Shown piece by piece: positions 3,620 through 58,430 of a stretch of 64,000 nt of DNA. Position 1 is the stretch's first letter. Every line of letters begins with the position of its first letter. Made by a program: the position numbers and the translations under genes. The stretch is from Phycisphaerae bacterium. GTDB taxonomy: Bacteria > Planctomycetota > Phycisphaerae > SM23-33. The stretch is taken from contig WRDM01000002.1 of the NCBI GenBank assembly GCA_009783465.1, positions 42,097-106,096 on the forward strand, given 5' to 3'. The notes under the pieces are model-generated. The model worked only from the letters and a program-made list of their open reading frames with translations, did not search any database and had not been told where the DNA came from.

Positions 3620-3934
3620 CTACCGCCCGGTGTTGTCTTCGGGATGGTCCTTCACGGCGTTTTCGGCGTGATTTTCCACGAAATTCTTCGCGTTGTTGGC
3701 CGCGTTCTCCGCATGATCGACCGCCTTTTCCGCGTGATTGGCGACGAAATGTTCCGCGTGGTTGGCGGCGTGTTCCATCGCGTTGGCGGCGTGGTTGGCG
3801 GCGTTCTCCACCGCGCGGGCCGCGTTGACCCCCTTCTCGCGCGCCTTCTCCGCCTGCTCGCGACTACAGCCAACCGACACCACCAGCAATCCCGCCACCA
3901 CGATCGCGGCCAGGAAATTCAACCGACTCATCAT
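3620..3934 (-). CDS. small lipoprotein with eight His-containing heptad repeats (x-N-H-A-E-x-A)
   Basis: Signal peptide plus lipobox (LLVVSVGCS); body is ENAANHA/ANHAEHF/VANHAEK/AVDHAEN... heptads; DNA shows matching degenerate ~21-nt tandem repeats. Confidence 0.45.
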   Translation of the reverse strand: MMSRLNFLAAIVVAGLLVVSVGCSREQAEKAREKGVNAARAVENAANHAANAMEHAANHAEHFVANHAEKAVDHAENAANNAKNFVENHAENAVKDHPEDNTGR

Positions 3935-4055
3935 GCCTCCTCCGAGAAATACGGGCGTCCGCCGCCTCGCTTCTCCTTGACCCCGTTTGCGACATTATAG
4001 GCCGATGTTCTTCCATTTCTTATGACACAAATGAGAGACCCGTTCGAGGGAAATA

Positions 4056-4197
4056 AGCCAATAGCCAATAGCCAGCAGGTATGGAAAGACAAGGACAAAA
4101 AGGCAAGGAAAGCGGGAACAGGCACATGAGTAACAACATTCAGAATCGTGTGATTTGCAACAAAACCCGCCATACCTTCTGGCTACTGGCTACTGGC
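4056..4197 (+). repeat. operon-hairpin element (OPH family, 'gccagtagccaatagccagtagg...ccatacctactggctactggc'), forward orientation
   Basis: ~28-bp inverted terminal arms flanking ~90-nt conserved core (..acagcgggaaca..atcagaatcgtgtga..); same family as 11024, 12571, 13745, 27752, 28293, 55981. Confidence 0.8.
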
Positions 4198-4358
4198 GAA
4201 ATGATTCCTTCGATCAGATCGCCCGCCCGCGCCACGAGAAATGAAAGCCCTTGTTTTTCCTCTGCCCCATTTGCGAATCCCGTTCGCCGTTCCTACACTG
4301 AGGCCGAGGGCGTCGGCGTGGGGTCGGCGTCGCGTGGGGCGTCTTCGCGGGGGCGGTC

Positions 4359-7300
4359 ATGCTGGGGTTGTCGCGTCGAGCGTTTCTTCAAGTCACCGCC
4401 GGCTCCGCGGGCGCCGTGGCCGCCTCCATGGGCCTGCGACAGGCGGGAAAACTCATCCCCTACGTCGTGCCCCCCGAGGAAATAAAACCAGGCCAGTGGG
4501 CGACCTTCGCGACCACCTGCCGCGAGTGCCCCGCCGGCTGCGGGCTGCACGCGCGGCACCGCGACGGCCGGGCCATCAAAGCCGAAGGCAACCCGCAAAG
4601 CCCCGTCAACCGCGGCGCGCTGTGCGCCCGCGGGCAATCCGCCGTGCAAGGCCTGTACGACCCCGACCGGCTGCGACACCCGCTGCGACGCGTCCACCGC
4701 GACGCGACGCTCGAACACGCCGCCTGGGCCGATGCCATTGCTGCCGTCATCGAAATCCTGAAAAAACCACAGAAAAACGTCCACATTGTCAGCGACTTGC
4801 AAACCGGCGCACTGGCGGAAGTGCAAACCGCCTTCGCCGCACTCCACGGCAGCGAGCCCGTGCTGTACTTCGAGCCGTGCAACTACGAACCGCTTCGCGA
4901 CGCCCACCGCATCGCCCTGGGCCTGGACGCAATCCCGCGATACCGCATCGAGCGAAGCCGCTACATTCTCAGCCTCGGCGCGGACTTCCTCGAAACGTGG
5001 ATCTCGCCCGTGGAGTTCGCTCGCGGCTTCGCAAACGCTCGCGAAATCCGCCCCGCCGAATACGGCCGCGATCCGTACGAGTCGCCGCCGCGCAGGCCCG
5101 GAAAATTGGTATACGTCGGGCCTCGACTGTCCATGACGGCCGCCAACGCGGATGAGTTTTTCCAATGCCAAAGCGGTGCCGAAGGCTGGATTGCCCTGGC
5201 GATTCTTCACGAACTGCTCGCCGCGGATTGGGTGCAAAACCAACGCGACGCGATCGCGGCAGCCGCGAAAATAGTGGGCGCCGAGCACGCGCTCAATCAC
5301 GCGGGGTTAGAAAAATCCACCGTCGCCCGCCTGGCCCACGAGTTCGCCGCCGCGCGCGGCGCGGTCGCGCTGGCGTGTCCGACCGCCGCCACGGGCGATG
5401 CGGCACGATGGGCTTCGCTGGCGGCCATCCTTCTCAACGTCGCCGTCGGCAGCGGCGGCAACGATGCGGAGAACAACGGCGTCATCGTCGATTTCTCGCA
5501 GCCGCACGCGCTGAGCGCCGCCGCCAAACTACGCGAAGTCGCCGATCGGTTGGCCTCGCTGGGGCCAAACGACGTCGTGATTCTGCACAACGCCAACGTG
5601 GCGTTCGCCCTGCCGGCAGCGGCGGCGGGATTACAAAACGCCGCCGCCGTGATTTATCTCGGCCCGCAGCTCGATGAAACCGCCGAACTCGCCGACGTCG
5701 TGCTGCCCACCGATTCGCCTCTGGAAGCCTGGGGCGACTACGAACCGTACGCGGGCATGCACAGCCTGATTCAGCCGACGACGGCCCGGCTGTACAATTC
5801 GCGAAACGCAGGCGACATCCTGCTGGCGCTCGCGCAGGCGACGAACCGCCCGCTCACTCCGCCGTACGCGTCAAGCCCGCCGGAAGATTTCCTGCACTGG
5901 CTGCGGCTGCGATGGCAACATTTTCACCCGCAACACGACTGGCAGGACGCCCTCCGCGCCGGCGGGGAGTTTGACGAGACGCCAGGTGGCGAGATGCCCG
6001 CTTCACGTGACGCGGGCGTCTCGCCCGCGTTGTGTGTTCCACTGTCCTGGCCTATGGAATACAGTAAATCTGTTCCACAGCACAGCGCGGGCAAGATGCC
6101 CGCGAGACACGAGGGCGAGACGCCCTCGTCACGTGAAGCAGACACCCGCGCCGCAGACGACCATTTCCATCTCTGGCTGTGGCCTTCGGTGTTCCTCTTC
6201 GACGGCCGGTCAGCCAACAGGCCGTGGTTGCAGGAGGCGCCCGATCCGACGACCCAGGCCACCTGGAGCAGTTGGGCGGACATGCATCCCGACCGTGCCG
6301 CCGCGCTGGGCCTGCGCGGCGGCGACGCCATTCGCATCCAACTGTACGACGCCACGGACAAATCCGCCGCCATCACCCTGCCCGTGCGAATCACCGCCGA
6401 CGTCGCCGACGACACCCTCGCCGTCGTCCTGGGCCAGGGGCACTGGGCGATGGGCAACACCGCCCGCAACCTCGGCGCCAACGCCTTCCGCCTCCGCCCG
6501 ATTCAACCGACGCGCGACAACTTCCCCGCCGTACGCGTCCGCCGTGCCGCCGGGGCCAATCCATTGTCCTATCATCCAACATCCGCCATGCAGGATCAGC
6601 ATCGCCGCGAACTGCTCCAGTGGACATCACTCGCGCAGGCGTCGGCCGACCCGCCCCCGCCGCGCGACGACGCGTTTCGCATGCCGCTGCCGGAAGGCTA
6701 CCGCACCGACGCCTACGCACCGCACGAACACCGCAACCACCGCTGGGCGATGGCGATCGACCTGCACCGATGCGTCGGCTGTGGCGCGTGCGCGGTCGCG
6801 TGCTACGCGGAGAACAACATCCCCGTCGTCGGGCCCGCCGAAGTGGATCGAGGCCGCGAAATGGCCTGGCTGAAAATCGTCCCCTACCGCTCGCCCCACG
6901 ACGCGGGCCGGCTGGGCTTCCTGCCGATGCTCTGCCAGCACTGCGACGCCGCCCCGTGCGAACCGGTCTGCCCCGTCTACGCGTCCATGCACACCGAGGA
7001 AGGCCTCAACGCCCAAGTCTACAACCGCTGCATCGGCACGCGGTACTGCAACAACAACTGTCCCTACAAGGCCCGGCGGTTCAACTGGTTCGACCGCGAC
7101 TGGCCGGAGTCGTCGCGATGGCAGCACAATCCCGAAGTCACCGTTCGCGAGCGCGGCGTGATGGAAAAATGCACCTTCTGCATTCAGCGAATCCGCCACG
7201 CCCAGCACCGCGCCCTCCGCGAAGACAGGCCGCTGCGAGACGGCGAAATCCAGCCCGCGTGCGTCGCCACCTGCCCGACCTCGGCCATGATCTTCGGCGA

Positions 7301-7427: not shown

Positions 7428-9382
7428 CCTACGCACAAATCGACGATGCCGTTCTCGGCGCGATGGCGCCGGCGAGGCGGCGGTATGTCGTCATCATGCT
7501 CGTGCTGGGCGGGCTTGTGGCGATGTTTTTCACCCTATGGATTCACCAGGCCCGCACGGGCATGGGCGTGGCCGGGATCAACTCGCCGGTCGGCTGGGGC
7601 GTGTACATCGCGTCGTTTGTGTTCTGGGTGGGCATCGCGCACAGCGGGACGTTGATTTCCGCCATCCTGCACCTGGTCCGCGCGAAATGGCGCACCGCGG
7701 TGGCCAGGTCCGCCGAGGCCATGACGATTTTCGCCGTCATGACCGCGGGGCTGTTCCCGCTGATCCACCTCGGTCGGGTGGGCGTGTTTTATTACATTCT
7801 GCCGTACCCGACCACGCGGCAGATTTACCCGAATTTCCTCAGCCCGCTGGTGTGGGACGTCGTGGCCATCTCGACCTACTTCACGGTCAGCCTGGTCTTC
7901 TGGTATGTCGGCCTGCTGCCGGATCTGGCCAGCGCCCGCGACCGCTGGCACCGCCTGGTCGGCCCCCATCACCCGCGCACGCGATTCTATCACGCCCTGG
8001 CCATGGGATGGTCCGGCAGCGGCAACCAGTGGCGGCATCACGGGCGGGCATACCTGTTCTTCGCCGCCCTGGCCACGCCATTGGTCATCAGCGTGCATTC
8101 GGTCGTCTCGTGGGATTTCGCGATGTCCATCCTGCCGGGATGGCACACGACGATGTTTCCGCCGTACTTCGTCGCCGGGGCCATTCACTCGGGACTGGCC
8201 ATGGTTATCGTGCTCCTGCTGCCGATGCGGAAACTTCTGCGGCTGGAAAGCCTCGTCACCGACTGGCACTTCGACTGCCTGGCCAAGACCCTCCTCGTCA
8301 CCACGTGCATCATGGGCTATTCGTATATCATCGAGCCGTTCACCGCCTGGTACAGCGGCAACGTGATCGAGCGGCAATTCATCCACTGGCGGGCGTTCGG
8401 CGACACCTGGCTGACGCCGGGCTACTGGTCGATGTGGCTGCTGAACGTCATCGTTCCGCTGGCGTTTTTCGTGCCCCGCCTCCGCCGCAGTCCCACCGCG
8501 CTGATGCTCATTTCCCTTGGCATCACGATCGGCATGTGGCTGGAGCGCGGCGTGATCGTGCCGGCAAGCCTCGCCCACGACTTCATGCCCCACGCCTGGG
8601 GCCAATACGTCCCCAGGCCAATCGAATGGGGAATTCTCCTGGGCTCGTTCGGCTGGTTTTTCTTCTGGTTTTTCGGCTTCGCGAAATTTTTACCGACCAT
8701 CGCGGCGAACGAGGTGAAAGAAGAAACGCATCGCGATGGCTTGCCGGCACCACGTGACGCGGGCGTCTCGCCCGCGTTGTGCGCTCCATGTGACTGGCTA
8801 CTGGAAAACGCCAAGTCGTCTTCAACATCGGACGCGGGCAAGATGCCCGCGAGACACGAGGACGAGACCCCCGCGTCACGTTACGTCTGGGGAACATTCG
8901 ACACGCCCGCCGCGTTGATCGCCGCCGTGCGGCAACTGCGTGACGACGGCGTGACGGGCATGGAGACGTACACGCCGTTTCGGTTACAGGAGGTGGAAAA
9001 ACTGCTCGGACGCGGCCCCAGCCCGGTGCGGCTGTGGACGTTGGCGGGCGCGTTGGCGGGCGCGGCGGGCGGATTCGCGTTGGCGATCGGCCTGGCGGCG
9101 ATTAACGGGCTTGTCGTCGGCGGGCGGATTTCCTACGCCGTCATCGTGCCGTACTGCGTGATCGCTTTCGAAGGCACGATCCTGCTGGGCGTGCTGGCGA
9201 ACGTGACGGGATTGTTTTTTCATGGCCGCCTCGGCAGCGCGAGGCCGTTGCCGCGCGGATACGTCCGGCGGATTTCGGAAGACCGTTTCGGCCTGCTCAT
9301 CCCGTGTGATCGCGAGCAGGTCGGCGCGATGCGGGAGCGGCTGAGCACCCTGTGCGCGGAGGCGATCCATGTCGTCGAATGA
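7415..9382 (+). CDS. actC: Alternative complex III ActC (NrfD-like polytopic subunit) fused in-frame to ActD via a palindromic element linker
   Basis: Starts MERLTYAQIDDAVLGAMAPARRRYVV (ATG overlapping actB stop); ~10 TM NrfD/PsrC-like body; after element (8749-8883) reading frame continues into YVWGTFDTPAALIAAVRQLRDDGV... (ActD/DUF3341-like) with C-terminal TM; no stop or restart between. Confidence 0.7.
   Translation: MERLTYAQIDDAVLGAMAPARRRYVVIMLVLGGLVAMFFTLWIHQARTGMGVAGINSPVGWGVYIASFVFWVGIAHSGTLISAILHLVRAKWRTAVARSAEAMTIFAVMTAGLFPLIHLGRVGVFYYILPYPTTRQIYPNFLSPLVWDVVAISTYFTVSLVFWYVGLLPDLASARDRWHRLVGPHHPRTRFYHALAMGWSGSGNQWRHHGRAYLFFAALATPLVISVHSVVSWDFAMSILPGWHTTMFPPYFVAGAIHSGLAMVIVLLLPMRKLLRLESLVTDWHFDCLAKTLLVTTCIMGYSYIIEPFTAWYSGNVIERQFIHWRAFGDTWLTPGYWSMWLLNVIVPLAFFVPRLRRSPTALMLISLGITIGMWLERGVIVPASLAHDFMPHAWGQYVPRPIEWGILLGSFGWFFFWFFGFAKFLPTIAANEVKEETHRDGLPAPRDAGVSPALCAPCDWLLENAKSSSTSDAGKMPARHEDETPASRYVWGTFDTPAALIAAVRQLRDDGVTGMETYTPFRLQEVEKLLGRGPSPVRLWTLAGALAGAAGGFALAIGLAAINGLVVGGRISYAVIVPYCVIAFEGTILLGVLANVTGLFFHGRLGSARPLPRGYVRRISEDRFGLLIPCDREQVGAMRERLSTLCAEAIHVVE
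8749..8883 (+). repeat. in-frame palindromic element (IPE family) at actC/actD junction
   Basis: CCACGTGACGCGGGCGTCTCGCCCGCGTTGTG...GACGCGGGCAAGATGCCCGCGAGACACGAGGACGAGACCCCCGCGTCACGTT; encodes PRDAGVSPALCAPCDWLLENAKSSSTSDAGKMPARHEDETPASR. Confidence 0.85.
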
Positions 9383-10508
9383 GCCTCATCGCGCGCAGAC
9401 GATCGCGTTGGCCCTGCTGGCGACGGTTGGCGTGGCGGCGTGGGTTGTCATGTATTGGCTTGGCGACCGCGCGAGGTTGTGGCAGTCGTTGTTGGTGGCG
9501 TTTGTGTATTTCTCGCCGCTGGCGGGCGGGCTGGTCGTCTGGTCGGCGGTCGTGAATCTTTCCAACGGGCGATGGACGGGGACGATGGAAAAGGCCGCCC
9601 TGTGGGGCCTGGGCGGCTGGGCGGTGGCGATCGCGCTGTTCGTGCTGCTGGCGGCGCTGTTCGTGCCGTCGTGGGCTTCGCGATGCGAAAACCCAACCTG
9701 GGCCTGCTGGCAGAGCGATCGGCGGGCCGACGCGGGGAAGGATTTCTGGCTGTCGTCCGAGTTCCTCTTCGCGAGAAACGCGGCGGCGCTACTGGCGTTC
9801 TGGGCCGTGGCCGCGTGGTATGTCCGCCGGCGAATGCGAGGCCTGCCCGCCCGAGGCCTCGCCACCGGCGTGGTCCTGCTGTACGTGCTGAGCATGACGC
9901 TGATCGGCTACGATCTGGTGATGAGCCTGGACCCGGTCTGGTTCAGCTCGCTGCTGGCGCCATACGTGTTCATCTCGGGCATGTACACCGCGACAGCCGC
10001 CTGGGCGATCGTCGCCGCCGACAGCGGCCTGCTCGAGCCGACCGACCGCCGGCACGACCTCGGCAAGCTGATCGTCACGTTCAGCCTGCTCACCATGTAC
10101 ATGATGTACGGTCAACTATTGTGCATCTGGTACGGCAACCTGCCGCCAGAATTGCGGTTCGTCGTGCCGCGGCTGCGACATCCGCCGATGCAGTACGTCA
10201 GCCTGCTCCTGCTGGGCACGGTCTACCTCGGCCCGCTGGTGCTCATGCTGCCGCGATGGGTCAAACGCCGCCCCGCGCCGCTGCGGCTGATGGCCGTGTG
10301 GGTGCTCGTGTTCATGTACGTCGAGCGATGGTGGCTGATCGTGCCGACGTTCCATCAAGGCCACGACGTGATCAGCCTGCCCATCGACCTGCACGCCGGC
10401 GACGCCGCTGTCGCACTCGCCGCCGTCGCGGGGACGGCCCTGGGAATCCGCCACGTACGACGCGCCGGGCCGGACCATGACGTCGCGGAGAAAGGCGGCG
10501 CGACATGA
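9369..10508 (+). CDS. actF: Alternative complex III ActF-like polytopic membrane subunit
   Basis: 379 aa, ~10 predicted TM helices, position after ActC/D and before pentaheme ActA; ATG overlaps upstream stop. Confidence 0.6.
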   Translation: MSSNEPHRAQTIALALLATVGVAAWVVMYWLGDRARLWQSLLVAFVYFSPLAGGLVVWSAVVNLSNGRWTGTMEKAALWGLGGWAVAIALFVLLAALFVPSWASRCENPTWACWQSDRRADAGKDFWLSSEFLFARNAAALLAFWAVAAWYVRRRMRGLPARGLATGVVLLYVLSMTLIGYDLVMSLDPVWFSSLLAPYVFISGMYTATAAWAIVAADSGLLEPTDRRHDLGKLIVTFSLLTMYMMYGQLLCIWYGNLPPELRFVVPRLRHPPMQYVSLLLLGTVYLGPLVLMLPRWVKRRPAPLRLMAVWVLVFMYVERWWLIVPTFHQGHDVISLPIDLHAGDAAVALAAVAGTALGIRHVRRAGPDHDVAEKGGAT

Positions 10509-11017
10509 CGAGTCATCGCCCCGCCGCCGTGCTCGCGCTGGTGCTCTTCCTGACGCTGCTGGCCGCGGCGGCGGTGTATTTCCTGCCCTGGCCCGCCGCC
10601 ATCGGACCGGCCCAACCCGTCGCGTTCAGCCATCGCGTCCACGCGGGCGTCAAACAGATCAGTTGCATCTTCTGCCACCCCGGCGTGATCGACGGCCCGC
10701 ACGCCACCGTGCCGCCCGTGGCCAAGTGCATGCTCTGCCACCAGAAAATCATTCCGAAACACCCGGAAATCGTCAAAATCCGCCAGGCCTACGAACGCGA
10801 CACGCCCATCGCGTGGGTCAAAGCAAACGACGTCCCCGAGTTCGTCTACTTCACACACGAGCGGCACATTCGCGAGGGCATCGACTGCGGCCGATGCCAC
10901 GGCAACGTCACCGCCATGGATCGCCTCGCCGCCGCGACCGAACTGAACATGGGTTTCTGCATCCCCTGCCACCGGGACAACAAGGCGAGTGTGGATTGCT
11001 ATGTGTGCCATAGGTAG
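10505..11017 (+). CDS. actA: Alternative complex III ActA, membrane-anchored pentaheme cytochrome c
   Basis: N-terminal TM helix; five CxxCH motifs (CIFCH, CMLCH, CGRCH, CIPCH, CYVCH); start overlaps actF stop. Confidence 0.7.
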   Translation: MTSHRPAAVLALVLFLTLLAAAAVYFLPWPAAIGPAQPVAFSHRVHAGVKQISCIFCHPGVIDGPHATVPPVAKCMLCHQKIIPKHPEIVKIRQAYERDTPIAWVKANDVPEFVYFTHERHIREGIDCGRCHGNVTAMDRLAAATELNMGFCIPCHRDNKASVDCYVCHR

Positions 11018-11023: not shown

Positions 11024-11172
11024 AGCCAGTAGCCAATAGCCAGTAGGTATGGAACGGCATCGGCAAAAAACAACGACAGCGGGAACAGATAACGATGCGG
11101 CCAAAATCAGAATCGTGTGTTTTGCAACTGGCTTCGCCATACCTACTGGCTACTGGCTATTGGCTACTGGCT
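11024..11172 (+). repeat. operon-hairpin element (OPH family), forward orientation, between actA and ccoN
   Basis: agccagtagccaatagccagtaggtatggaacggcatcggcaaaaaacaacgacagcgggaacagataacgatgcggccaaaatcagaatcgtgtgttttgcaactggcttcgccatacctactggctactggctattggctactggct. Confidence 0.85.
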
Positions 11173-11192: not shown

Positions 11193-12593
11193 ATGAATCG
11201 ACGACAAACCATCTTCCGCAAACCCAACTCCGCCGCGTTGGCCTGGCTTCTCGCCGGCGCGGTGTGGTTTGCCATGGGGACGACCTGGGGGCTGTTTTCG
11301 GCGGCCCATCTCATCGCGCCGGAATTGTTCGATAATATTAGCTGGCTGGTATTCGGGCGGACCAGGCCTGTGCATGTCAACACGGTGATTTTCGGATTCG
11401 TCGCGCCCATGTTGATCGGGGCGGCGCTGCATTACGTGCCCGCCCTGCTCAAAACGAGGCTGTGGTCCGAGCCGCTGGGCTGGCTTGCCTGGCTGGCGTG
11501 GAACGCCGCCGTCGCCAGCGGATTCATCCTGCTGCCGCTGGGCATCACGCAGGGCCGGGAGTACGCCGAGTATATTTTCCCCTTCGACGTGTGCATCATG
11601 GTCGCGCTGGTGCTGCTGATCGTGAATCTGGTGATGACCATCGCCACCCGCCGCGAGCCGCTGCTGTATGTGAGCGTGTGGTACGTGGTGGGCATGGCCG
11701 TGTGGACGGCAGGCGTGTATCCGATCGGCAACGTGATGTGGCAGCCCGCCACCGGCGCGATGCCCGGCGTGCTGGACTCGATTTTCCTGTGGTTTTACGG
11801 CCATAATCTCGTCGGCCTGCTGCTGACGCCGCTGGCGACCGCGGCGGCGTATTTCGTCGTCCCCCGCGTCACGCGCACGCCGCTCTACAGCCACACGCTC
11901 AGCCTGGTGGGCTTCTGGATCCTGCTGACGCTCTACACGCACATCGGGGCGCACCACCTTCTCCAGGCGCCGGTGCCGAATTGGCTCAAGACCCTCTCCG
12001 TCGTCGATTCCATGGCCATGATGCTGCCGGTTTTCACCGTGCTGATGAATCTCTGGCTGACCGCGCGAGGCCGGGGCGGCAGGCTGTGGCGCGACGTCGG
12101 CGGGCGGTTCGTGATGTTCGGGCTGATCCTGTATTTCGTCACCTGCGTGCAAGGCCCGCTGCAAAGCCTGCCCAGCGTGCAGCGTGTCACGCACTTCACC
12201 AACTGGACGATCGGCCACGCGCACATCGCCGTGCTGGGATTCGCGGGGTTCATCGCGCTGGGGGCGATGTGGCACACGCTGCCGGGCATCCTCGGCCGTC
12301 GGCTGTTTTCGACCCGACTCGTCAGCGTCCAGTTCGGCCTGCTGATGACGGGCGTGGTGGGCTTCTTCCTCGTGCTGTCGATCGCAGGCCTGGTGCAGGG
12401 TACCAACTGGGCCAACGGCAACGTGGAATACAACACCCTGCCGATGATGCCCCCCTACATGATCCTCCGCGGCGCGATGGGCCTGCTGATCGTCACCGCC
12501 GCGTGGGTAGGGCTGTACAACTGCGTGAAAACGATACGCCGTAAGGAACGTGCAACCGAGTTGGCGACAAAGCCAGTAGCCAATAGCCAGTAG
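11193..12593 (+). CDS. ccoN: cbb3-type cytochrome c oxidase subunit I (CcoN)
   Basis: 466 aa, 12 TM; HLIAPELFDNISWLVFGRTRPVHVNTVIFGF and FLWFYGHNLVGLLLTPL match CcoN signature helices; last 7 codons (KPVANSQ*) are supplied by the OPH repeat arm. Confidence 0.75.
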   Translation: MNRRQTIFRKPNSAALAWLLAGAVWFAMGTTWGLFSAAHLIAPELFDNISWLVFGRTRPVHVNTVIFGFVAPMLIGAALHYVPALLKTRLWSEPLGWLAWLAWNAAVASGFILLPLGITQGREYAEYIFPFDVCIMVALVLLIVNLVMTIATRREPLLYVSVWYVVGMAVWTAGVYPIGNVMWQPATGAMPGVLDSIFLWFYGHNLVGLLLTPLATAAAYFVVPRVTRTPLYSHTLSLVGFWILLTLYTHIGAHHLLQAPVPNWLKTLSVVDSMAMMLPVFTVLMNLWLTARGRGGRLWRDVGGRFVMFGLILYFVTCVQGPLQSLPSVQRVTHFTNWTIGHAHIAVLGFAGFIALGAMWHTLPGILGRRLFSTRLVSVQFGLLMTGVVGFFLVLSIAGLVQGTNWANGNVEYNTLPMMPPYMILRGAMGLLIVTAAWVGLYNCVKTIRRKERATELATKPVANSQ

Positions 12594-12720
12594 GTAAGGC
12601 ACGACATTGGCGAAACGGCAGTGACAGCGGGAACGGATACAAAAATGGCAACGGCCAGGATCGTATGACTGGCGACAGGCTTCGCCATACCTACTGGCTA
12701 TTGGCTATTGGCTACTGGCT
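12571..12720 (+). repeat. operon-hairpin element (OPH family), forward orientation, overlapping ccoN stop codon
   Basis: agccagtagccaatagccagtaggtaaggcacgacattggcgaaacggcagtgacagcgggaacgg...ggatcgtatgactggcgacaggcttcgccatacctactggctattggctattggctactggct. Confidence 0.85.
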
Positions 12721-13744: not shown

Positions 13745-13889
13745 AAGCCACAAGCCACTAGCCACCAGCCACGAGGTAAGGAACGACAACGGCGAAATGA
13801 CAATGAACGCGGGAATAAATACGAACATGGCGATAATTTGTGATCGTGTAATTCACAACAGATTTCGCCATACCTGGTAGCTAGTGGCT
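13745..13889 (+). repeat. operon-hairpin element (OPH family, 'ccacaagccactagccac' arm variant), forward orientation
   Basis: aagccacaagccactagccaccagccacgaggtaaggaacgacaacggcgaaatgacaatgaacgcgggaataaat...gatttcgccatacctggtagctagtggctt. Confidence 0.75.
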
Positions 13890-13907: not shown

Positions 13908-14090
13908 ATGAACCCTGACCAGATCGACGCGTTGTTCAGCACGCGGTTTGTGATTATCTGCGTGACCTTCTCCAGCCTGGCGATGGTGGCGATTATCGTC
14001 ATGCTGGTCTGGGCAACCCGCCGCCGTCAATTCACCGACCAACACCGCGCCCGCCGGCTGGCATTGGAGGCGAAGATTCCACCTGAGTAA
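13908..14090 (+). CDS. small single-TM membrane protein (possible CcoQ-like oxidase accessory peptide)
   Basis: MNPDQIDALFSTRFVIICVTFSSLAMVAIIVMLVWATRRRQF...; GGAGG RBS 10 nt upstream; location directly after ccoO. Confidence 0.3.
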   Translation: MNPDQIDALFSTRFVIICVTFSSLAMVAIIVMLVWATRRRQFTDQHRARRLALEAKIPPE

Positions 14091-14142
14091 CAATCAGGAC
14101 AATCGCATGTGCATGCCTTATTCCACACAGGATTCGCATTTC

Positions 14143-14254
14143 GGCGCCACTGGCCACAGGCCCTGCCATTTTGCGTTGTCGATCGTTGTGACAGACGAAG
14201 CGTTCAGTCGCTCACACCGTCTTACAACGCAAAATGGCAGGGCCTGTGGCCAGT
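14143..14254. repeat. large perfect-ish palindrome (BPAL family, 'ggcgccactggccacaggccctgccattttgcgttg...caacgcaaaatggcagggcctgtggccagtg')
   Basis: ~35-bp arms around ~40-nt core; family copies at 34674, 36198, 62041 and shorter variants at 19001, 33165, 58334. Confidence 0.8.
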
Positions 14255-14347
14255 GATGCCGAGTACGAAGGTCACGCGAAAACCGGAAAATATACATGCG
14301 TTCGCCCTGGAGTAGCCATCACCTATACTGTATTGGGGGAGCGTCGC

Positions 14348-14630: not shown

Positions 14631-15038
14631 ATGGCCAAAACCTTCGAAGAGTATCGCGTGCTTTCTCAACCGGCGGCGTGGGCGTTGCTGTTTCTGCTGG
14701 CCGGTGGCATTCTCGCGTGGGGCCTGTTCGTGAAATCCGTCATTCCCAACACACCGCGCGTCCACAACTACGGCGCCCTGCCCGACGCACCGGGACAATC
14801 CATCTACTCCACAAACCCCACGCCGCGCGACACCACCGCACCGCCGCAATATCAAACGCTCCCCGAAGCCAAACGTGACGCGGGCGTCTCGCCCGCGTTG
14901 TGCGTTCCATTGGCCGAGGCACCGGAAAACGATCTCTCGACTTCGCCATCCGGCACGGGCAAGATGCCCGCGGGACACGAGGGCGGGACGCCCTCGTCAC
15001 GTGAGACGCCCACATCACACGCAGAGGCGTCGCCATGA
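14631..15038 (+). CDS. small membrane protein whose C-terminal third is encoded by an in-frame palindromic element
   Basis: N-terminal TM (AWALLFLLAGGILAWGLFV); C-terminal ...AKRDAGVSPALCVPLAEAPENDLSTSPSGTGKMPAGHEGGTPSSRETPTSHAEASP*; stop overlaps next start (ATGA). Confidence 0.35.
   Translation: MAKTFEEYRVLSQPAAWALLFLLAGGILAWGLFVKSVIPNTPRVHNYGALPDAPGQSIYSTNPTPRDTTAPPQYQTLPEAKRDAGVSPALCVPLAEAPENDLSTSPSGTGKMPAGHEGGTPSSRETPTSHAEASP
14874..15004 (+). repeat. in-frame palindromic element (IPE family) forming the C-terminus of a small membrane protein
   Basis: AAACGTGACGCGGGCGTCTCGCCCGCGTTGTG...CACGGGCAAGATGCCCGCGGGACACGAGGGCGGGACGCCCTCGTCACGTGA. Confidence 0.85.
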
Positions 15039-16741: not shown

Positions 16742-17785
16742 TCACGCCTCGGCAGCACCTTGGGCAGCCCTTGCCTCTTCCATGCGTTGCAGGAGCGCAC
16801 GGGTTTCGAGAGTCTTGGGATGATCCTTCCCGAGCACATCTTCTCGCAGTGTCAGCACGGCCTGGCACTCCGTTTCCGCTTCGACATGCCGGCCCTGACC
16901 GTGTAACGCCTCGGCCAACCGGTGGCGGCTGACCAGCGTGTCGGGATGCCGTGACCCCACAACCTCCTCCTGAAGTATCAGCACGGCCCGACACTCCGCC
17001 TCCGCCTCGACATGCCTGCCCTGACCTTGCAACGCCTCCGCCAAATTGCTGCGACCAAGAAGCGTATACGGATGCCTGGCCCCGAAAACCTCCTCCAGCC
17101 GTTTCTGTGCATCCAGACACAGGGCTTCCGCCTCGACGTCTTTTCCCTGACCGTGTAACGCCCCGGCCAAATTGATGTGCATGAGGAGCGCGACGGGGTG
17201 CGTAGCGTCCGAACCCGCCTCGTGTTGTTGGATGACCTGCCGACATTCCGCCTCGGCCTCGACGTGTTTATCCTGGTCCACCAGCGCAGCCGCCAGATTG
17301 ATATGGAGCATCATCGCGGAAGGATCCGTAATATTCCATTGGCGCTTCCACTCCAGCGCCGTCCGGCTCTGGGCTTCGGCCTCGGCATATCGGCCTTGGC
17401 CAAGCAGCGCAAACGCCAGATTGTTGTGAAGATTCAGCGTGGAAAGCCGCCTGACGTTGCCCCTCGTTGGCAACTCCTGCGTCAGTGCCGTCCGACACTC
17501 GATTTCCGCCTCGACGTATCGCCCCTGGTCCAGAAGCGCAGCCGCCAGATTACCGCGGAGGATCTGCACGCAAACAGGACTGACGATCCAGACCCGCTCC
17601 TGAGATGTCAACATCGCCCGGCACGCGATTTCCGCCTCGACATATCGGCCCTGACCATGCAGCGCAACCACCCGTTTACAGTGACGGGAAATACGATGTG
17701 CACGCCACAGCCCCACCAACAGAAACCCGGCGAAAACCGCGACGAAGACGGCTCCGAAAACGACCCACATGTTGTCCATCTGCAC
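16742..17785 (-). CDS. N-terminally membrane-anchored tetratricopeptide-repeat protein
   Basis: N-terminal TM (VFGAVFVAVFAGFLLVGLW) then ~8 degenerate TPR units of form LxGQGRYVEAEAECRxVL. Confidence 0.55.
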   Translation of the reverse strand: MQMDNMWVVFGAVFVAVFAGFLLVGLWRAHRISRHCKRVVALHGQGRYVEAEIACRAMLTSQERVWIVSPVCVQILRGNLAAALLDQGRYVEAEIECRTALTQELPTRGNVRRLSTLNLHNNLAFALLGQGRYAEAEAQSRTALEWKRQWNITDPSAMMLHINLAAALVDQDKHVEAEAECRQVIQQHEAGSDATHPVALLMHINLAGALHGQGKDVEAEALCLDAQKRLEEVFGARHPYTLLGRSNLAEALQGQGRHVEAEAECRAVLILQEEVVGSRHPDTLVSRHRLAEALHGQGRHVEAETECQAVLTLREDVLGKDHPKTLETRALLQRMEEARAAQGAAEA

Positions 17786-18982: not shown

Positions 18983-19000
18983 AGTAGACTACACTTTCGC

Positions 19001-19090
19001 GATGGCTCCGCCGGTTTGCGCTGTAGAACGTTGTGGACTACAAAACATTTTTTTGTACGCAACGTTCTACAACGCAAACCGGCGGAGCCA
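19001..19090. repeat. palindrome (short BPAL variant: gcgatggctccgccggtttgcgctgtagaacg...cgttctacaacgcaaaccggcggagccat)
   Basis: Between murG and ftsW; related copies at 33165-33230 and 58334-58423. Confidence 0.8.
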
Positions 19091-19104
19091 TATCAACCAT
19101 TCGT

Positions 19105-20569: not shown

Positions 20570-21727
20570 TCAGTCCACCAGCGCCGTCGGCTGGAACTCC
20601 AGCCGCATGGCCGCCAGGGCGAGCACGGCCAGCAGGATGCCGATGATCCAGAATCGCGTGACGACCTTGGTTTCCGCCCAGCCGCCCAGGTGAAAATGAT
20701 GATGCAGCGGCGCGCAGCGAAAAACCCGCTTGCCCGCGATGCCGCCTTTTTTCTTGGTGAGCTTGAACACGCTCACCTGGATGATGACGCTGAAGGCCTC
20801 GGCCACGAAGATGCCGCCCGCGATGAACAGCACGATCTCCTGCCGACAGACGACCGCGACGAACCCCAGCAGCCCGCCGAGCGTCAGGCTGCCCGTGTCG
20901 CCCATGAACACCTGCGCGGGATGCGCGTTATACCAGAGAAATCCCAAACACGCGCCAATCATGGCCGCACAGACAATCGCCATCTCCTGCGCGCCGTACA
21001 CCAGCGGCACGCCCAGGGCCATCGACCACTCCCGCACGCCCGCCACCCACGCCACCACGACGAAGACCGCCGACACGATAATCACGCACCCGGTGGCCAA
21101 ACCGTCCATGCCGTCGGTGAGGTTCACCGCATTCGACGTGGCCACCATCGTCAGCGTCGAAATCATCACATAGTAATAAATCGTCAGCACGATCGGCGAG
21201 GCCAGGAACGGCAGGTAAAAATGATGCGAAGGCCTCAACTGCCCCACACCCGCCTGCCCGCCGTAATGATACATGTATACCGACAACACCACGCCAAGCC
21301 CGATCTGGAAGAGCAGCTTCTCGCCGCTGGTCAGGCCGTCGCGATTGCCCTTGCCCGCAGCGCGGCGAAGCTTGAGCCAATCGTCAAAGCCCCCCAGCAC
21401 GCCCAGCCAGACGGCCGCGAGAATCGCCGCCCACACGTACAAGTTCCGCAAATCGGCGAAAAACAGCACCGCCAACACAATGGCCACCACGATCAGCACG
21501 CCCCCCATCGTCGGCGTGTTGGATTTGTGCTTGGTGATCTCGTTCAGGTCGATGTGATTAAACTCAGGCCGGTCGCCGACCTTCTTCTTGATGAGAAACC
21601 GAATCAGGCTCGGGCCGAGCATCATGACCACCGCAAAACTCATGAACGCCGCCGCGCCCATCCGCACCGTCAACAACGAGCCGGGCTTGATGTCCAACGA
21701 CAAAAAATTGAGAAGCCAGTAGATCAT
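20570..21727 (-). CDS. mraY: phospho-N-acetylmuramoyl-pentapeptide transferase
   Basis: 385 aa, 10 TM, MraY family (DGMDGLA, NLTDGLDGL-like motifs). Confidence 0.9.
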   Translation of the reverse strand: MIYWLLNFLSLDIKPGSLLTVRMGAAAFMSFAVVMMLGPSLIRFLIKKKVGDRPEFNHIDLNEITKHKSNTPTMGGVLIVVAIVLAVLFFADLRNLYVWAAILAAVWLGVLGGFDDWLKLRRAAGKGNRDGLTSGEKLLFQIGLGVVLSVYMYHYGGQAGVGQLRPSHHFYLPFLASPIVLTIYYYVMISTLTMVATSNAVNLTDGMDGLATGCVIIVSAVFVVVAWVAGVREWSMALGVPLVYGAQEMAIVCAAMIGACLGFLWYNAHPAQVFMGDTGSLTLGGLLGFVAVVCRQEIVLFIAGGIFVAEAFSVIIQVSVFKLTKKKGGIAGKRVFRCAPLHHHFHLGGWAETKVVTRFWIIGILLAVLALAAMRLEFQPTALVD

Positions 21728-21731
21728 TCTC

Positions 21732-21840
21732 GTTAACCCGGTAACTGGTTAACTAGTTGACTAGTTAACTGGTTGACTGGTCCCTTCGCCAAACGGTTCC
21801 TCTTCACTAGTTAACCAGTTAACGAATTAACCAGTTAACA
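21732..21840. repeat. GTTAAC-rich palindromic repeat (ggttaactagttgactagttaactggttgac...ctagttaaccagttaacgaattaaccagttaac)
   Basis: Family copies at 192-240, 25311-25400, 42461-42522. Confidence 0.75.
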
Positions 21841-21909
21841 AAAATGCTTCCCTCGAACAACCGGTTCACCTTCACCCACACGCTTCGCAAATCCTACGTG
21901 GCTGCGTGG

Positions 21910-23759: not shown

Positions 23760-25304
23760 TCATCGTTTCACCAACATCTCGCGCACCACTTCGGCATCAT
23801 CAAAATGATGTTTGGTTTCCTCGACAATCTGGTACGTTTCGTGCCCTTTGCCGGCTAACAAAATCACGTCGCCTTCGCGGGCGTGCTGAATCACCCGCTC
23901 GATCGCCTTGCGGCGGTCGGGTTCGACGTGCGTTTTGGCCAGGCCTGCCGGTGTGAAGCCGGCGAGGATTTCGTCGATGATCGCGCGGGGGTCTTCCGTT
24001 CGCGGGTTGTCGCTGGTGACGACGACGGCGTCAGCAAGTTCTTCTGCCACGCGGGCCATCCGAGGCCGTTTGAGTCGGTCGCGATCGCCGCCACAGCCGA
24101 ACATCACGATCAGCCGCCCCCGCGTCACGGGCCTGACCGCCGACAGCACGTTCGCCATCGCGTCGTCCGTATGAGCGTAATCCACGTACACCGTGAACGG
24201 CGCGTCCACCGGCACGCGGTCAAGCCGCCCCGGCACGCGAACGCCCTTCGTCAACGTCGAGGCGATCACGTCCCACGACACGCCCAACCCGCGACAAATA
24301 CCCGCCGCCGCGAGACCGTTCCGCACGTTGTGCTTGCCGATCAGCGGGCTGGCAATCATGATCTCACGTGACGCGGGCGTCTCGCCTGCGTTGTGCGTGC
24401 CATGGGATTGGCCATTAGAAGACGTCAAACCGTCTTCGCCCGACGCGGGCAAGATACCCGCGTCACGCATCACAAACTCCGTGCCGCGGTCGCTGATGTC
24501 GCGAATCACAGCGCCGAGCGTTCTCGGCCCGTCCAGGCCGTAACTCACCACACGGCCTCGCGTCACCGCCGCCATCGCCTCGCCCGACGGATCGTCAAAA
24601 TTAATCACCGCCGTCGCGGAGGCGGGCAACTCCGCAAAGAGAATCCGCTTGGCCGCGAGATAATTCGCCATCGTCTTGTGATAGTCCAAATGCTCGCCGG
24701 TCAAATTCGTGAACGCCGCCGCCGCGTACTCCACGCCGGCCACCCTGCCCTGATCCAGCGCGTGCGACGACACCTCCATCACCAGGTGCGTTCGACCGGC
24801 CTGTACCATCTCGGCCATCATCTCCGCCAAGTCCACCGCGCCGGGCGTGGTGTTGTTGGCCTCGACGCTGGTTTTTCCGGTTTCGTAGGCAATCGTGCCC
24901 AGCAGCGCCGGCCGATGGCCCGCCGCCTCCAGGATCGCCCGCACCAGCAGCGTGATGGTGCTTTTTCCCTTCGTGCCCGTCACGCCGATGTTGATCAACT
25001 TCCGCGCCGGCCAGCCGTGAAACGCCTGCGCCATCGGCCCGAGCGCCCGCGCGGAACTCGACACCACAGCCCACGGCACGGACGCGGGCACGGCAGCGGC
25101 ATCCTCGCACACCACCGACGTCGCCCCGCCCGCCAACGCCGCCGCGATAAAATCATGCCCATCCACCACAGGCCCGCGCACGGCCACGAAACACGCCCCC
25201 GCGGCGCAGCGTCGCGAGTCGCTCACCAGCGAGGCCACAGGCCCGTCGCCGCGGCGAACGACCACGTCCACCCCCGCCGATGCCAACAATTCCGACAGAC
25301 GCAT
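23760..25304 (-). CDS. murE: UDP-N-acetylmuramoyl-L-alanyl-D-glutamate--2,6-diaminopimelate ligase, carrying in-frame palindromic element
   Basis: Mur ligase domains (GVTGTKGKSTIT P-loop, DNPRTEDP); internal ...SSNGQSHGTHNAGETPASREIMIA... encoded by element at 24364-24469. Confidence 0.85.
   Translation of the reverse strand: MRLSELLASAGVDVVVRRGDGPVASLVSDSRRCAAGACFVAVRGPVVDGHDFIAAALAGGATSVVCEDAAAVPASVPWAVVSSSARALGPMAQAFHGWPARKLINIGVTGTKGKSTITLLVRAILEAAGHRPALLGTIAYETGKTSVEANNTTPGAVDLAEMMAEMVQAGRTHLVMEVSSHALDQGRVAGVEYAAAAFTNLTGEHLDYHKTMANYLAAKRILFAELPASATAVINFDDPSGEAMAAVTRGRVVSYGLDGPRTLGAVIRDISDRGTEFVMRDAGILPASGEDGLTSSNGQSHGTHNAGETPASREIMIASPLIGKHNVRNGLAAAGICRGLGVSWDVIASTLTKGVRVPGRLDRVPVDAPFTVYVDYAHTDDAMANVLSAVRPVTRGRLIVMFGCGGDRDRLKRPRMARVAEELADAVVVTSDNPRTEDPRAIIDEILAGFTPAGLAKTHVEPDRRKAIERVIQHAREGDVILLAGKGHETYQIVEETKHHFDDAEVVREMLVKR
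24364..24469 (+). repeat. in-frame palindromic element (IPE family) inside murE (opposite orientation to host gene)
   Basis: TCACGTGACGCGGGCGTCTCGCCTGCGTTGTG...GACGCGGGCAAGATACCCGCGTCACG. Confidence 0.85.
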
Positions 25305-25310
25305 GTTTTC

Positions 25311-25400
25311 GTTAACTGGTGAACTCGTTAACTCGTTAACTGGTTAACTCGTTGGCGCACGTCGCAACTTCACGAGTCAACCAGTTAACGAATCAACGAA
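25311..25400. repeat. GTTAAC-rich palindromic repeat
   Basis: gttaactggtgaactcgttaactcgttaactggttaactcgttgg...cgagtcaaccagttaacgaatcaacg. Confidence 0.75.
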
Positions 25401-25523: not shown

Positions 25524-25716
25524 CAAGCCACTAGCCATCAGCCACTAGCCACCAGGGTTTTCGTGACTCGGCTGTAAAATCGCTCCTCCTGTTCGAGAGA
25601 GTGATCTCGTGGCTTCGCTGACTCGTAGATCAATTCTCACACGCACACCAGCAGTATGCCCTGGCTTCTGGAAAGCTTCGCCCTACCTTGTGGCTTGTGG
25701 CTAGTGGCTTGTGGCT
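25524..25716. repeat. divergent OPH-type element (gccactagccatcagccactagccacc...ccttgtggcttgtggctagtggcttgtggctg)
   Basis: Shares arm motifs with OPH family but core not conserved. Confidence 0.55.
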
Positions 25717-27695: not shown

Positions 27696-27751
27696 GCGGG
27701 TCTCATCTTCGTTGGGCGACGGTAAAATCGCACCGTCAGTTCGAGGGAACC

Positions 27752-27896
27752 AAGCCAGTAGCCAATAGCCAGTAGCCACAAGGTATGGTAAAGCCTGTTA
27801 CGAATCATCCGATCTTGAACTTCGCCACGTTCGTGTCTATTCCCGCTTTCACTGCCATTTCGCCACCGACGTTCCTTACCTTGTGGCTAGTGGCTG
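27752..27896 (-). repeat. operon-hairpin element (OPH family), reverse orientation, between ftsI and ftsL-like gene
   Basis: Reverse complement aligns with forward copies (..ggtaaggaacgtcggtggcgaaatggcagtgaaagcgggaataga...ctttaccataccttgtggctactggc). Confidence 0.85.
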
Positions 27897-27905: not shown

Positions 27906-28277
27906 TTACCGTCCTCGCAGAATCGGCCGATCGTTTCGTTGTGGCGGCGTTGTGGTTTCGCGGGGCGGGGCCGCTTCGCGACGTTGCACCACGGCGCGAC
28001 GGGTCGGTTCGGGGGCTTTTAAGCCCTTGGCCAGGGCATCGCGATGCGTGGGGTCGATCAGTTTCGCCGCCACCGCCTCACCGCGCTCGCCGACCTGCCG
28101 AAACGACGCCAGGCGGGAAATCTCCACATCCTGTGTCCAGACCTGCCGTGGCACTTCGATATCGCAGTAATTCCGCAACGACAGCGTCTCATTGCGCACA
28201 CGGGCTTCCTCGGCGCGAAACTGAACCAGCACCACGCCGATGGCCGCAAAGCACACGATGATAAACGCGATTCGCAT
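27906..28277 (-). CDS. FtsL/FtsB-like bitopic cell-division protein
   Basis: 123 aa; N-terminal TM (IAFIIVCFAAIGVVLV) followed by predicted coiled coil; canonical ftsL position upstream of ftsI. Confidence 0.4.
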   Translation of the reverse strand: MRIAFIIVCFAAIGVVLVQFRAEEARVRNETLSLRNYCDIEVPRQVWTQDVEISRLASFRQVGERGEAVAAKLIDPTHRDALAKGLKAPEPTRRAVVQRREAAPPRETTTPPQRNDRPILRGR

Positions 28278-28292: not shown

Positions 28293-28436
28293 AGCCAGTA
28301 GCCATCAGCCAATAGCCAGTAGGTATGGCCACGCCTGATGTCGATCACACGATCCAGATCTTGGCTACCTGTACACCCGTTCCCGCTGCCGCTGCCATTT
28401 CGCCGACGTCGTGCCGTACCTATTGGCTACTGGCTA
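28293..28436 (-). repeat. operon-hairpin element (OPH family), reverse orientation
   Basis: acagccagtagccatcagccaatagccagtaggtatggccacgcctgatgtcgatcacacgatcc...gttcccgctgccgctgccatttcgccgacgtcgtgccgtacctattggctactggctac. Confidence 0.85.
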
Positions 28437-28445: not shown

Positions 28446-29462
28446 TCAGTTTCCCAGCATCAGCTCCTGGCCGACGCGGATGCTGTTGGCGTCCTTGATG
28501 CCGTTGAGTTTGGCCAGGTCGTCGGTGGTCAGTCCGCTTTTGCGGGCGATGGCGAAGAGCGTGTCGCCCTTCTTGACGACGTACTTTTCCTTCGCCGCCG
28601 CCGGCGCGGGCGTGGGCTGATCCACGACCACCAGCGGCGGAGTCCGCGAAGCGGCGCCCGCGGGCGTCAGGCCGACAATCACCGTCTCCGTCGCGCGGAT
28701 GGGAACGGTCGGCTTCGGGGCCGGTGCCGGCGCCGCCAGCGGCGGAATGGTCAACTCCATGCCGACCTTCAGGTTGTTCGGGTTGCCAATGACCGACTTG
28801 TTCACGTCGAAAATCTTGGTGTGCTGCGACGCGTTGGCGTCGCCGTAGAGTGTTCTCGCGATGCCGTACAGCGTGTCGCCCTGCTTGACGACGTATTTCT
28901 GTCCGACGACGGCCGGTTGAACAACGGGTACAGGCGTAGGGCCGAGCATTGTGTCCACCACCGCGACAGCCGGCACGGGCTGGCGGACAGGCGCGGGCGG
29001 TGTGTTATTCACGCGCGACTCCGCCGCCAGCACGTCGGCCAGCGTGTCGTACGTCACCGTCACCGTCCGGTTGCCCGACGGCACGGGCGGCGCCACGACC
29101 GGCGCAACCGCCACCGGCGTGTCATTTACGACCGGGCTTGTCTGGGCCGGCCCGACGACCGCCGACTCCACCCGGCCTGGATTCATCTGAGCGACAGGTC
29201 CGACGCTCGCATCCCACACCGACGCGGAATCCGCCGTGCCGACAACGCGATGGTCGCCGCTGGCTTCCGACGACACCGTCAACGGGCGAGTCGGCACCGG
29301 GGGCGACCCGGTGCCCTGCGCCAGTTTCTTCATCTCCGGCGACAAGGCCGACGGCCCGTCCTCCTTGGGCATGATGCCGCTGAGCACCAACCCGAAGGCC
29401 ACGATAAACAACAATCCGACGAGCAAACCAATCTTCGTCTCTCTCGTCATGTCCGACTCCAT
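28446..29462 (-). CDS. bitopic membrane protein with two C-terminal LysM peptidoglycan-binding domains
   Basis: N-terminal TM (IGLLVGLLFIVAFGLVLSGIM), Pro/Val/Thr-rich linker, LysM 1 (YVVKQGDTLYGIARTLYGD...LKVGMELTIP) and LysM 2 (YVVKKGDTLFAIARKSGLTTDDLAKLNGI...IRVGQELML). Confidence 0.6.
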   Translation of the reverse strand: MESDMTRETKIGLLVGLLFIVAFGLVLSGIMPKEDGPSALSPEMKKLAQGTGSPPVPTRPLTVSSEASGDHRVVGTADSASVWDASVGPVAQMNPGRVESAVVGPAQTSPVVNDTPVAVAPVVAPPVPSGNRTVTVTYDTLADVLAAESRVNNTPPAPVRQPVPAVAVVDTMLGPTPVPVVQPAVVGQKYVVKQGDTLYGIARTLYGDANASQHTKIFDVNKSVIGNPNNLKVGMELTIPPLAAPAPAPKPTVPIRATETVIVGLTPAGAASRTPPLVVVDQPTPAPAAAKEKYVVKKGDTLFAIARKSGLTTDDLAKLNGIKDANSIRVGQELMLGN

Positions 29463-30430: not shown

Positions 30431-30575
30431 GTCGCTGACAACGAAGCGACAAGCGACTGGTGACAAACGACAAGAGAAGGCAACGTTTTTCGTATTCGTC
30501 GTTCTCGCGACAAGCCATCGCTCTGAAAGACAAGACACTCCTGCTCCAGTCGCTTGTCACCTGTCGCTTGTCGCT
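30431..30575. repeat. 'gacaagcgac' palindromic repeat (gacaacgaagcgacaagcgactggtgacaaacgacaag...cagtcgcttgtcacctgtcgcttgtcgc)
   Basis: Second copy at 49805-49935. Confidence 0.75.
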
Positions 30576-58423: not shown

Positions 58424-58430
58424 ATCCGTG

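Follow-up and report, generated by a model that had tools for sequence, protein, structure and literature searches.

Orientation-biased hairpin modules of a MITE family at operon junctions in a Phycisphaerae lineage, and a possible transcript-level filter on their antisense copies

The intergenic hairpins of about 145 nt that recur in the window (the whole 64-kb stretch of DNA analysed here) are the inner module of a MITE family of a Phycisphaerae (Planctomycetota) lineage. The family is biased in its orientation relative to transcription, the bias replicates in independent contigs, and it is conditional on spacer length. The best explanation, to which we give about even credence on the strength of sequence and composition, would be an inner MITE module whose Rho-polar antisense copies are purged at the transcript level, with a possible role for the sense copies that remain.

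Results

Architecture of the window copies

A search of the window with the arm pattern returned 10 matches against 0.00 expected, and an nhmmer profile built from the alignment of the seven window copies recovered each of them with 134-162 bits (E 1e-39 to 1e-48; Table 1). On the opposite strand the same copies score about 20 bits, so that strand discrimination is clear in each. The pattern search and nhmmer thus bear out the description given by the first-pass annotation of seven copies with inverted arms, an asymmetric core and defined orientations. The arms are inverted repeats of two to five tandem 7-nt units (AGCCAnT) each, heptamer arrays of 14-49 nt that are not palindromes by themselves; the 5' arm ends in AGGTAnGG and the 3' arm in CCATACCT. 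Between them lies an asymmetric core of about 100 nt (97-107 nt across copies) that includes the islands AGCGGGAA and ATCGTGTG. In the flagged copy (copy 2), the 5' arm AGCCAGTAGCCAATAGCCAGTAGGTATGG and the 3' arm CCATACCTACTGGCTACTGGCTATTGGCTACTGGCT form a long hairpin.

The genes flanking the elements were assigned with Pfam to an ActB-like protein, CcoN, CcoO/P and an M16 pair on the plus strand, and to FtsI and a LysM protein on the minus strand. Copy 2 begins 6 nt beyond the ORF 10505-11017 stop codon and leaves 20 nt to the CcoN start (11193), and the 5' arms of copies 3 and 5 contain the stop codons of their upstream genes (CcoN, TAG at 12591-12593; the upstream M16 gene, 55991). Copy 6 retains a downstream outer repeat, TTCCCTCGAAC (27739-27748 on the plus strand). 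Co-orientation with the flanking genes, which the annotation had claimed for every window copy, stands for all six informative ones; copy 1 lies between divergent genes (the upstream gene, 3620-3934, is on the minus strand), and its orientation is therefore uninformative. The core of the related hairpin between murE and ftsI contains GTAAAATCGC..GTTCGAGAGA, a motif that is also seen beside the hairpins at 27739 and 42444.

Table 1. Copies of the inner hairpin module and related elements in the window
Feature	Position	Strand	nhmmer score (bits)	Context and remarks
Copy 1, inner hairpin module	4056-4198	+	138	Divergent region upstream of act operon
Copy 1, degenerate outer repeats	4042-4051; about 4205-4216			GTTCGAGGGA; ATTCCTTCGATC
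Copy 2 (flagged)	11024-11172	+	155
Copy 3	12571-12720	+	162	CcoN / CcoO/P junction; orthologous copy in L070
Copy 4	13746-13889	+	134	CcoO/P (stop 13731) / 60-aa ORF (13908-14090); orthologue L070:1835-1991
Copy 5	55976-56133	+	139	Junction of two M16 peptidase genes
Copy 6	27753-27895	-	148	FtsL-like ORF (27906-28277, -) / FtsI; orthologue L046:536-698
Copy 7	28293-28435	-	143	LysM gene (28446-29462, -) / FtsL-like ORF; orthologue L046:1-152
Related hairpin, AGCCAnT arms (4+4 units), unrelated core	25526-25715	orientation undefinable		Between minus-strand murE and ftsI
MITE-superfamily member, about 280 bp	54409-54687	.		Same outer termini, GGTyTTTCnATTCTCGyG... (GGTTTTTCCATTCTCGCGGCA ... CGTCACGAGAATCGAAAGACC)

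The complete form

The complete form of the family, as found at the listed metagenome loci, is a near-perfect palindrome of about 268 bp (range 248-285, mode about 268). It reads CAGGGTCTTTCAATTCTCGTGGCG..GTTCGAGGGAACCGTTC, (AGCCAnT)n, AGGTATGG and the asymmetric core, followed on the 3' side by CCATACCT, (nnTGGCT)n and GAACGGTTCCCTCGAAC..CGCCACGAGAATTGAAAGACCCTG. The outer inverted termini measure about 55 nt (CAGGGTCTTTCAATTCTCGTGGCG... / ...CGCCACGAGAATTGAAAGACCCTG; terminus also written CAGGGTCTTTCAATTCTCGTGG), and 17 complete copies among the listed loci can be aligned across them. Many copies have this extra outer inverted repeat, above all where the stem is near-perfect over 60-70 bp. 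Direct duplications of 10 bp with at least 8/10 identity flank 8 of 12 complete copies, three of them perfectly (10/10); in the control, 0 of 132 cross-copy pairs reached 8/10. None was seen at the seven inner-only window copies. Together, outer inverted repeats and 10-bp duplications constitute a transposition signature which identifies the family as a MITE, and the usual features of such elements were found: terminal inverted repeats, a short (<300-400 bp) non-coding element, target-site duplication and dispersed copies. Within about 650 kb of contigs, nhmmer found at least 74 unique full-length copies, distributed over no fewer than 65 independent loci.

The combination of 10-bp duplications with long terminal repeats points to a DDE-type transposase, by which the complete MITE would be moved; the listed loci contained none, and no pair of termini enclosing a long ORF, as expected of an autonomous partner, was seen in this small sample. 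The same outer termini enclose other inner modules, such as one with 8-nt GTTAAC-type arms at locus L040 and the unrelated module of element 54409-54687, which occupies a divergent intergenic region. At L091:8627-9016, another palindrome, whose arms are AGGCTGT heptamers, is nested within the core of a complete element. TTGAC-N17-TAnAAT is often found some 20-40 nt 3' of complete copies (L029, L050, L052, L064, L077, L081, L090), which places sigma-70-like promoters a short way downstream of such copies.

The outer repeats are absent where a copy occupies a short spacer within an operon. One outer repeat is kept in only 9 of 38 sense copies among the listed loci, and it is the repeat on the stop-codon side that is preferentially lost, in both orientations. 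From these sequences we infer that inner-only copies derive from complete MITEs. Alternatively, they could have spread by another, orientation-specific route.

Orientation census

The census covered the window and at least 90 metagenome loci fetched by sequence pattern, mostly from one JGI sample and amounting to about 650 kb, with genes called by a codon-usage caller that reproduced all recorded gene calls of locus L007. Orthology to segments of the window, with nucleotide identity near 80%, was recognised for three of these loci. The window itself belongs to a 104-kb ENA metagenome contig, and the MraY that it encodes is 100% identical to a protein from a Phycisphaerae MAG. A scan of a genome collection for the family pattern gave six chance matches in unrelated taxa and no family copy. 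Between co-directional genes, the listed loci show 38 sense and 6 antisense copies (p=9e-7). Leaving out the window copies gives 32:6 (p=2e-5), and similar ratios are obtained with stricter gene thresholds.

The bias depends on the downstream spacer. Where fewer than 100 nt separate the end of the element from the next start codon, the listed loci have 30 sense copies and no antisense copy, against 8:6 where the spacer is 100 nt or longer (tight versus long, Fisher p=4e-4). The respective ratios at these loci are 25:0 and 7:6 once shared loci are collapsed, and 20:0 and 7:6 when window-orthologous loci are dropped as well. The 100-nt cut-off was picked after the data had been seen; the pattern is unchanged with cut-offs of 60 or 130 nt. 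Among the listed loci, copies with both outer repeats stand at 3:3 and those without both at 35:3. An apparent in-situ inversion between loci L027 and L093 was rejected, the two having been wrongly merged on account of a different repeat in their flanks.

An absolute bias at tight junctions, also in the independent set, argues for an effect at the transcript level, and to this extent the RNA-level inference that the first-pass annotation had drawn from strand bias is upheld; tests for a functional RNA structure were negative (see below). Its generalization that the elements are always co-oriented with the surrounding operon does not extend to the family, given the six antisense copies between co-directional genes at the listed loci. 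An orientation census of the kind that it had proposed, here over about 650 kb of contigs, revealed a biased orientation overall and a ratio of 8:6 with long spacers. Nor can its premise that a passive MITE would not be strand-specific be retained: the family is a MITE, and its complete copies and long-spacer copies occur in both orientations (3:3 and 8:6).

Replication-strand bias is shown by single-strand transposons and by some REP-like elements, and one may ask whether orientation here follows the replication strand, genes being merely co-oriented with replication. The window copies are on the plus strand at 4-14 kb, on the minus strand at 27-28 kb and on the plus strand again at 56 kb, matching the local genes, and GC skew is negative throughout the 64-kb window, with no switch. 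Since orientation flips under a uniform skew, its correlate is transcription rather than replication, and we consider the replication-based account extremely improbable.

Fusion to gene ends

The median distance from the upstream stop to the start of a sense copy is 5 nt if the profile hit is taken as the start and 3 nt if the first heptamer is. In 13 of 28 cases the upstream stop codon is itself a TAG of the 5' arm, at offsets -2, -9, -16 and -23, and TAG is the commonest stop of the upstream genes (18/35). With TAGs spaced every 7 nt, the stops of the 5' arm cover all three frames. Many genes thus owe their stop codons, and hence their last residues, to these elements, which is of relevance to annotation, all the more so as ORF callers are misled by long spurious ORFs that start inside the elements. 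Intra-operon copies in short spacers must be co-transcribed with their neighbours. A depletion of sense AUG at the 5' junction of tight copies was considered and set aside, the signal being weak (p=0.035) and confounded by subfamily.

Coding and structure

Two small proteins could in principle be read from the core: an opposite-strand peptide of the type MAKPVAxHTIL..VPA, whose ATG, located in the CCATACC junction, is present in every copy examined and which yields similar hydrophobic peptides from five of the seven window copies, or a sense ORF beginning at the AUG of AGGTATGG. Column variability is without a period-3 pattern (p=0.79) and core lengths fall in every residue class modulo 3, however, and the opposite-strand ORF does not exceed 17 codons in 16 of 60 copies, while the sense ATG is found in only 30 of 60, opening ORFs of 5-57 codons with no conserved stop. 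Coding is excluded on both strands, and a small protein encoded by the core deserves hardly any credence.

RNAalifold, run on 55 copies, predicted the long stem alone and no helix in the core. The stem is 89.3% paired versus 86.0% in shuffles, with compensatory changes limited to the variable heptamer positions. An APC-corrected mutual-information scan gave no Watson-Crick covariation in the core, where a hand-picked candidate helix (GGCGAA/TTCGCC) is 77.5% paired versus 75.6% in shuffles. The covariation analysis by which the first-pass annotation had proposed to check its RNA-level reading accordingly returned neither a consensus fold nor Watson-Crick covariation in the core. Mispairs within the stem are without a G·U excess (G·U 85 versus A·C 74 overall, p=0.43), and those of tight-junction sense copies carry no strand signature (36 versus 36). 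Stems are more decayed in tight copies (83.5% versus 88.9% Watson-Crick). Sense RNA folds more stably than antisense RNA in 60 of 74 copies from the listed loci; as an indication of structure this was rejected as a base-composition effect, the sense core being close to its shuffled versions (z=-0.3). Rfam gave no match at gathering thresholds, the weak matches being spurious plant miRNA-precursor hairpins. Neither an intrinsic terminator (GC-rich hairpin followed by a U tract) nor a sigma-70 promoter (-35/-10 hexamers) was present on either strand inside five scanned copies.

Constraint on core islands

Conservation of the core is uneven. Island columns, for which we required conservation of at least 85% in the other 48 copies, were examined in four orthologous pairs, where they are 90% identical (90/100) versus 54% for the remaining core (124/231; p=3e-11). 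The result is stable across thresholds and with the hypervariable centre excluded, and island identity also exceeds the rate at 4-fold degenerate sites (64-74%; p about 1e-6). Taken as a whole, the core is 66-74% identical between orthologues, equal to the 4-fold degenerate sites of adjacent genes (64-74%) and roughly the level of random paralogue pairs (65±6%). Written out, the islands are GGAA..C..GGC.AAA...CA...A.AGCGG.A ... TCGT.T.A ... CA ... CCATACCT. Such unevenness in immobile operon-internal copies argues that some function of the primary sequence is maintained there. A sequence-specific role of the sense copies, for example as a putative mRNA or DNA binding platform, is plausible, and the purifying selection seen on the islands between orthologous copies fits a positive function better than mere tolerance.

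Core composition and a candidate Rho filter

Purines make up 65% of the sense core (A.36, G.29, C.18, U.17). Sites at which Rho loads are unstructured over 60-80 nt or more, skewed toward C over G and provided with spaced YC dimers (PMC6144790), and from the same source we took two descriptors of rut sites, namely spaced YC dimers and the presence of a C>G bubble within a window of 78 nt. A C>G window of 78 nt is found in 100% of antisense cores versus 20% of sense cores, the mean maximum C-G being +17.6% in antisense (the 91st percentile of the CDS background) versus -4.7% in sense. YC dimers number 17.3 per 100 nt in antisense cores and 6.3 in sense cores, with a CDS background of 14.8, and chains of at least six spaced YC dimers are present in 38% of antisense cores versus 0% of sense cores. 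By composition, then, the antisense core has the makings of a rut site, according to rules that come from E. coli and Salmonella.

These properties are suggestive of the following course of events. MITE insertions would arrive in either orientation. Within an untranslated operon spacer, an antisense loop of this composition would act as a Rho entry site, leading to early termination and polarity on the downstream genes, and antisense insertions would be purged. The sense loop, with G in excess of C and few YC dimers, would be tolerated, and sense copies may in part have been exapted, as the island constraint suggests. The long stem that closes the loop might either hinder or help the loading of Rho.

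Other repeats in the window

The window contains a number of further repeats. One of about 130 nt, GC-rich and beginning CACGTGACGCGGGCGTCTCGCCCGCG..., lies inside ORFs at 6003-6134, 8750-8881 and 14871-15002 and occurs also at 24364-24467 and 35323-35454. The host ORFs are the ActB-like gene, the 7415-9382 gene and a small ORF, all of which translate the repeat in one common frame into a conserved peptide (RDAGVSPALC..GKMPAxHExxTPxSR); two copies fall within minus-strand genes. By analogy with the RPE of Rickettsia, it looks like an in-frame palindromic repeat insertion. A second hairpin family, in which a short loop joins arms of tandem 8-nt units (GTTAACnG), is found at 21723-21843, 25302-25397, 42444-42502 and 182-224 and is likewise flanked by GTTCGAGGGA. 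The murF-mraY junction carries this family in the window versus the AGCCAnT family in the orthologous locus L065 (L065:2793-2941). A perfect palindrome with 55-nt arms of CACAGAG-type units is located at 41485-41606, and an inverted copy pair built of GCGACAA units at 30519-30575 and 49805-49861, both being further cases of hairpin arms assembled from short tandem units. Near-perfect palindromes of 100-130 nt form two intergenic families (14133-14260, 36203-36330 and 62036-62163; 18995-19094 and 58327-58426).

Five minus-strand ORFs share a conserved 3'-terminal DNA segment (31687-31757, 33361-33431, 36493-36563, 38056-38126 and 41620-41690) that, read in frame with the genes, would encode a predicted PEP-CTERM-like tail, hydrophobic and arginine-rich, which suggests a paralogous family of sorted secreted proteins. 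The minus-strand ORF 16742-17785 contains 126-nt tandem repeats at 16800-17685 (at least five units, 61-78% identical) and is probably a repeat-domain protein.

Discussion

A purge of Rho-polar antisense copies competes with readings in which the sense copies were positively selected or inserted one way only. According to the first of these, the one put forward by the first-pass annotation, the sense copies are cis-acting RNAs recruited by the host, whether as a 3' exonuclease barrier, an RNase III or RNase E site or an attenuator, and the bias results from positive selection for function, not from the removal of harmful antisense copies. The 25-30:0 ratio at tight junctions of the listed loci is compatible with such recruitment, as are the retention of copies at orthologous junctions in genomes that are about 80% identical, the contrast between islands and remaining core in orthologues (90% versus 54%) and a stable long hairpin that folds better as sense RNA in 60 of 74 copies. 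So is the position of the elements, which begin 0-10 nt past the upstream stop or overlap it, an arrangement reminiscent of ribosome-sensitive ERIC (PMC2229807). However, the core has neither consensus structure nor covariation and folds no better than its shuffled versions (z=-0.3), the difference in folding energy between the strands stems from composition, stem mispairs are balanced at 36:36 and tight stems are the more decayed ones; whole-core divergence resembles that of 4-fold degenerate sites and random paralogues, a different hairpin family may occupy an orthologous junction, and no Rfam family was matched. On this evidence we view host-recruited cis-acting RNA as possible, though on balance unlikely.

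A more specific proposal, tentative and unlikely in our estimation, is that the sense inner module has been domesticated as a kind of operon punctuation, in which a stop-fused hairpin would combine a Rho-refractory loop with islands shown to a dedicated trans-acting factor. The putative islands on display would be GGC.AAA...CA...A.AGCGG.A, TCGT.T.A and CCATACCT, single-stranded in the purine-rich loop.

One-way insertion of the inner module, coupled to transcription or to a strand-specific target next to stop codons, would also give rise to the bias; one candidate is a HUH/RAYT-like process that works on single strands and recognises the arms with their GTAG. Tight copies are devoid of outer repeats and target-site duplications, so that a separate route is possible, elements tend to start only a few nt from a stop codon, and the arms carry a repeated (G/A/C)TAG similar to that of the GTAG-tagged REPs, most of which lie downstream of ORFs (PMC3733652). 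Yet complete copies with target-site duplications are found in both orientations, orientation is independent of the replication strand, unlike what IS200/IS605-like mobility would lead one to expect, and no HUH or RAYT gene was seen in the small sample inspected. The six antisense copies, too, lie near the preceding stop, which indicates that the preference for this position is independent of orientation. One-way insertion consequently strikes us as quite improbable. The selective removal of antisense copies through Rho-dependent polarity remains the reading that we prefer, and the one-way survival at tight junctions speaks for selection on the mRNA rather than for a novel type of regulator.

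Several known families share part of these features. The ERIC/IRU elements of enterobacteria, MITE-like imperfect palindromes of 127 bp, are likewise intergenic, co-transcribed in operons and able to form a long hairpin; they have no sequence similarity to the present family and are distinguished by 7-bp terminal repeats and TA ends, in contrast to the tandem-heptamer arms, the purine-rich loop of about 100 nt, the second outer repeats and the 10-bp duplications described here. For ERIC, we know of no report of an all-or-none orientation filter at tight junctions. Mycobacterial MIRUs are intra-operon spacer repeats co-oriented with genes and overlapping stop and start codons; they are direct tandem repeats with small ORFs for translational coupling, not hairpins, whereas the present family is non-coding. 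An effect of ERIC on upstream mRNA that depends on orientation and on ribosomes is attributed to De Gregorio 2005 in the account given by PMC2229807. The Correia/NEMIS elements of Neisseria are abundant and often co-transcribed MITEs whose double-stranded RNA stems are RNase III substrates (PMC2229807). They resemble the present family in having terminal inverted repeats, target-site duplications and forms with or without an internal segment, and differ from it by AT-richness, a TA duplication, an IHF site, an unrelated sequence and another host phylum.

REPs are imperfect palindromes of 20-40 bp with a GTAG (or CGTC) tag at one end; those tagged with GTAG are mostly found just downstream of ORFs, between co-directional or convergent genes, and have been reported in Planctomycetes (PMC3733652). 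Some REP/BIME elements act as attenuators. REP/BIME and REPIN elements are mobilised by RAYT, inverted pairs forming larger hairpins. In the present family, (G/A/C)TAG recurs inside each unit instead of serving as a terminal tag, which sets it apart from REPs as defined, and REPs are single palindromes without target-site duplications, whereas the complete form has both long terminal repeats and duplications. A MITE of Porphyromonas gingivalis is reported to have an internal minisatellite of short tandem repeats whose number varies between copies (PMC4596501); in the present family, the tandem heptamers form both hairpin arms as inverted arrays. ERIC, Correia/NEMIS and REP/BIME are the nearest known systems, and the present family is related in sequence to none of them. 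What is distinctive here is the combination of heptamer-array arms, a nested double palindrome, a long purine-rich loop and an all-or-none filter at tight junctions.

At the listed loci one and the same MITE shows no preferred orientation outside operons and is found strictly one way (25:0) within them, a natural experiment on the constraints that transcription places on bacterial mobile DNA. Its conserved islands make the immobile operon-internal copies candidates for exaptation and for recognition by a putative binding factor, which could be identified. If the proposed punctuation of operons were true, a trans-acting factor would set processing, stability or re-initiation between cistrons, and the module would be a transposon-derived, sequence-specific junction signal of a kind not known to be described in any phylum. 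The natural experiment makes a transcript-level filter on mobile DNA, be it through Rho polarity or otherwise, directly testable in a poorly studied phylum.
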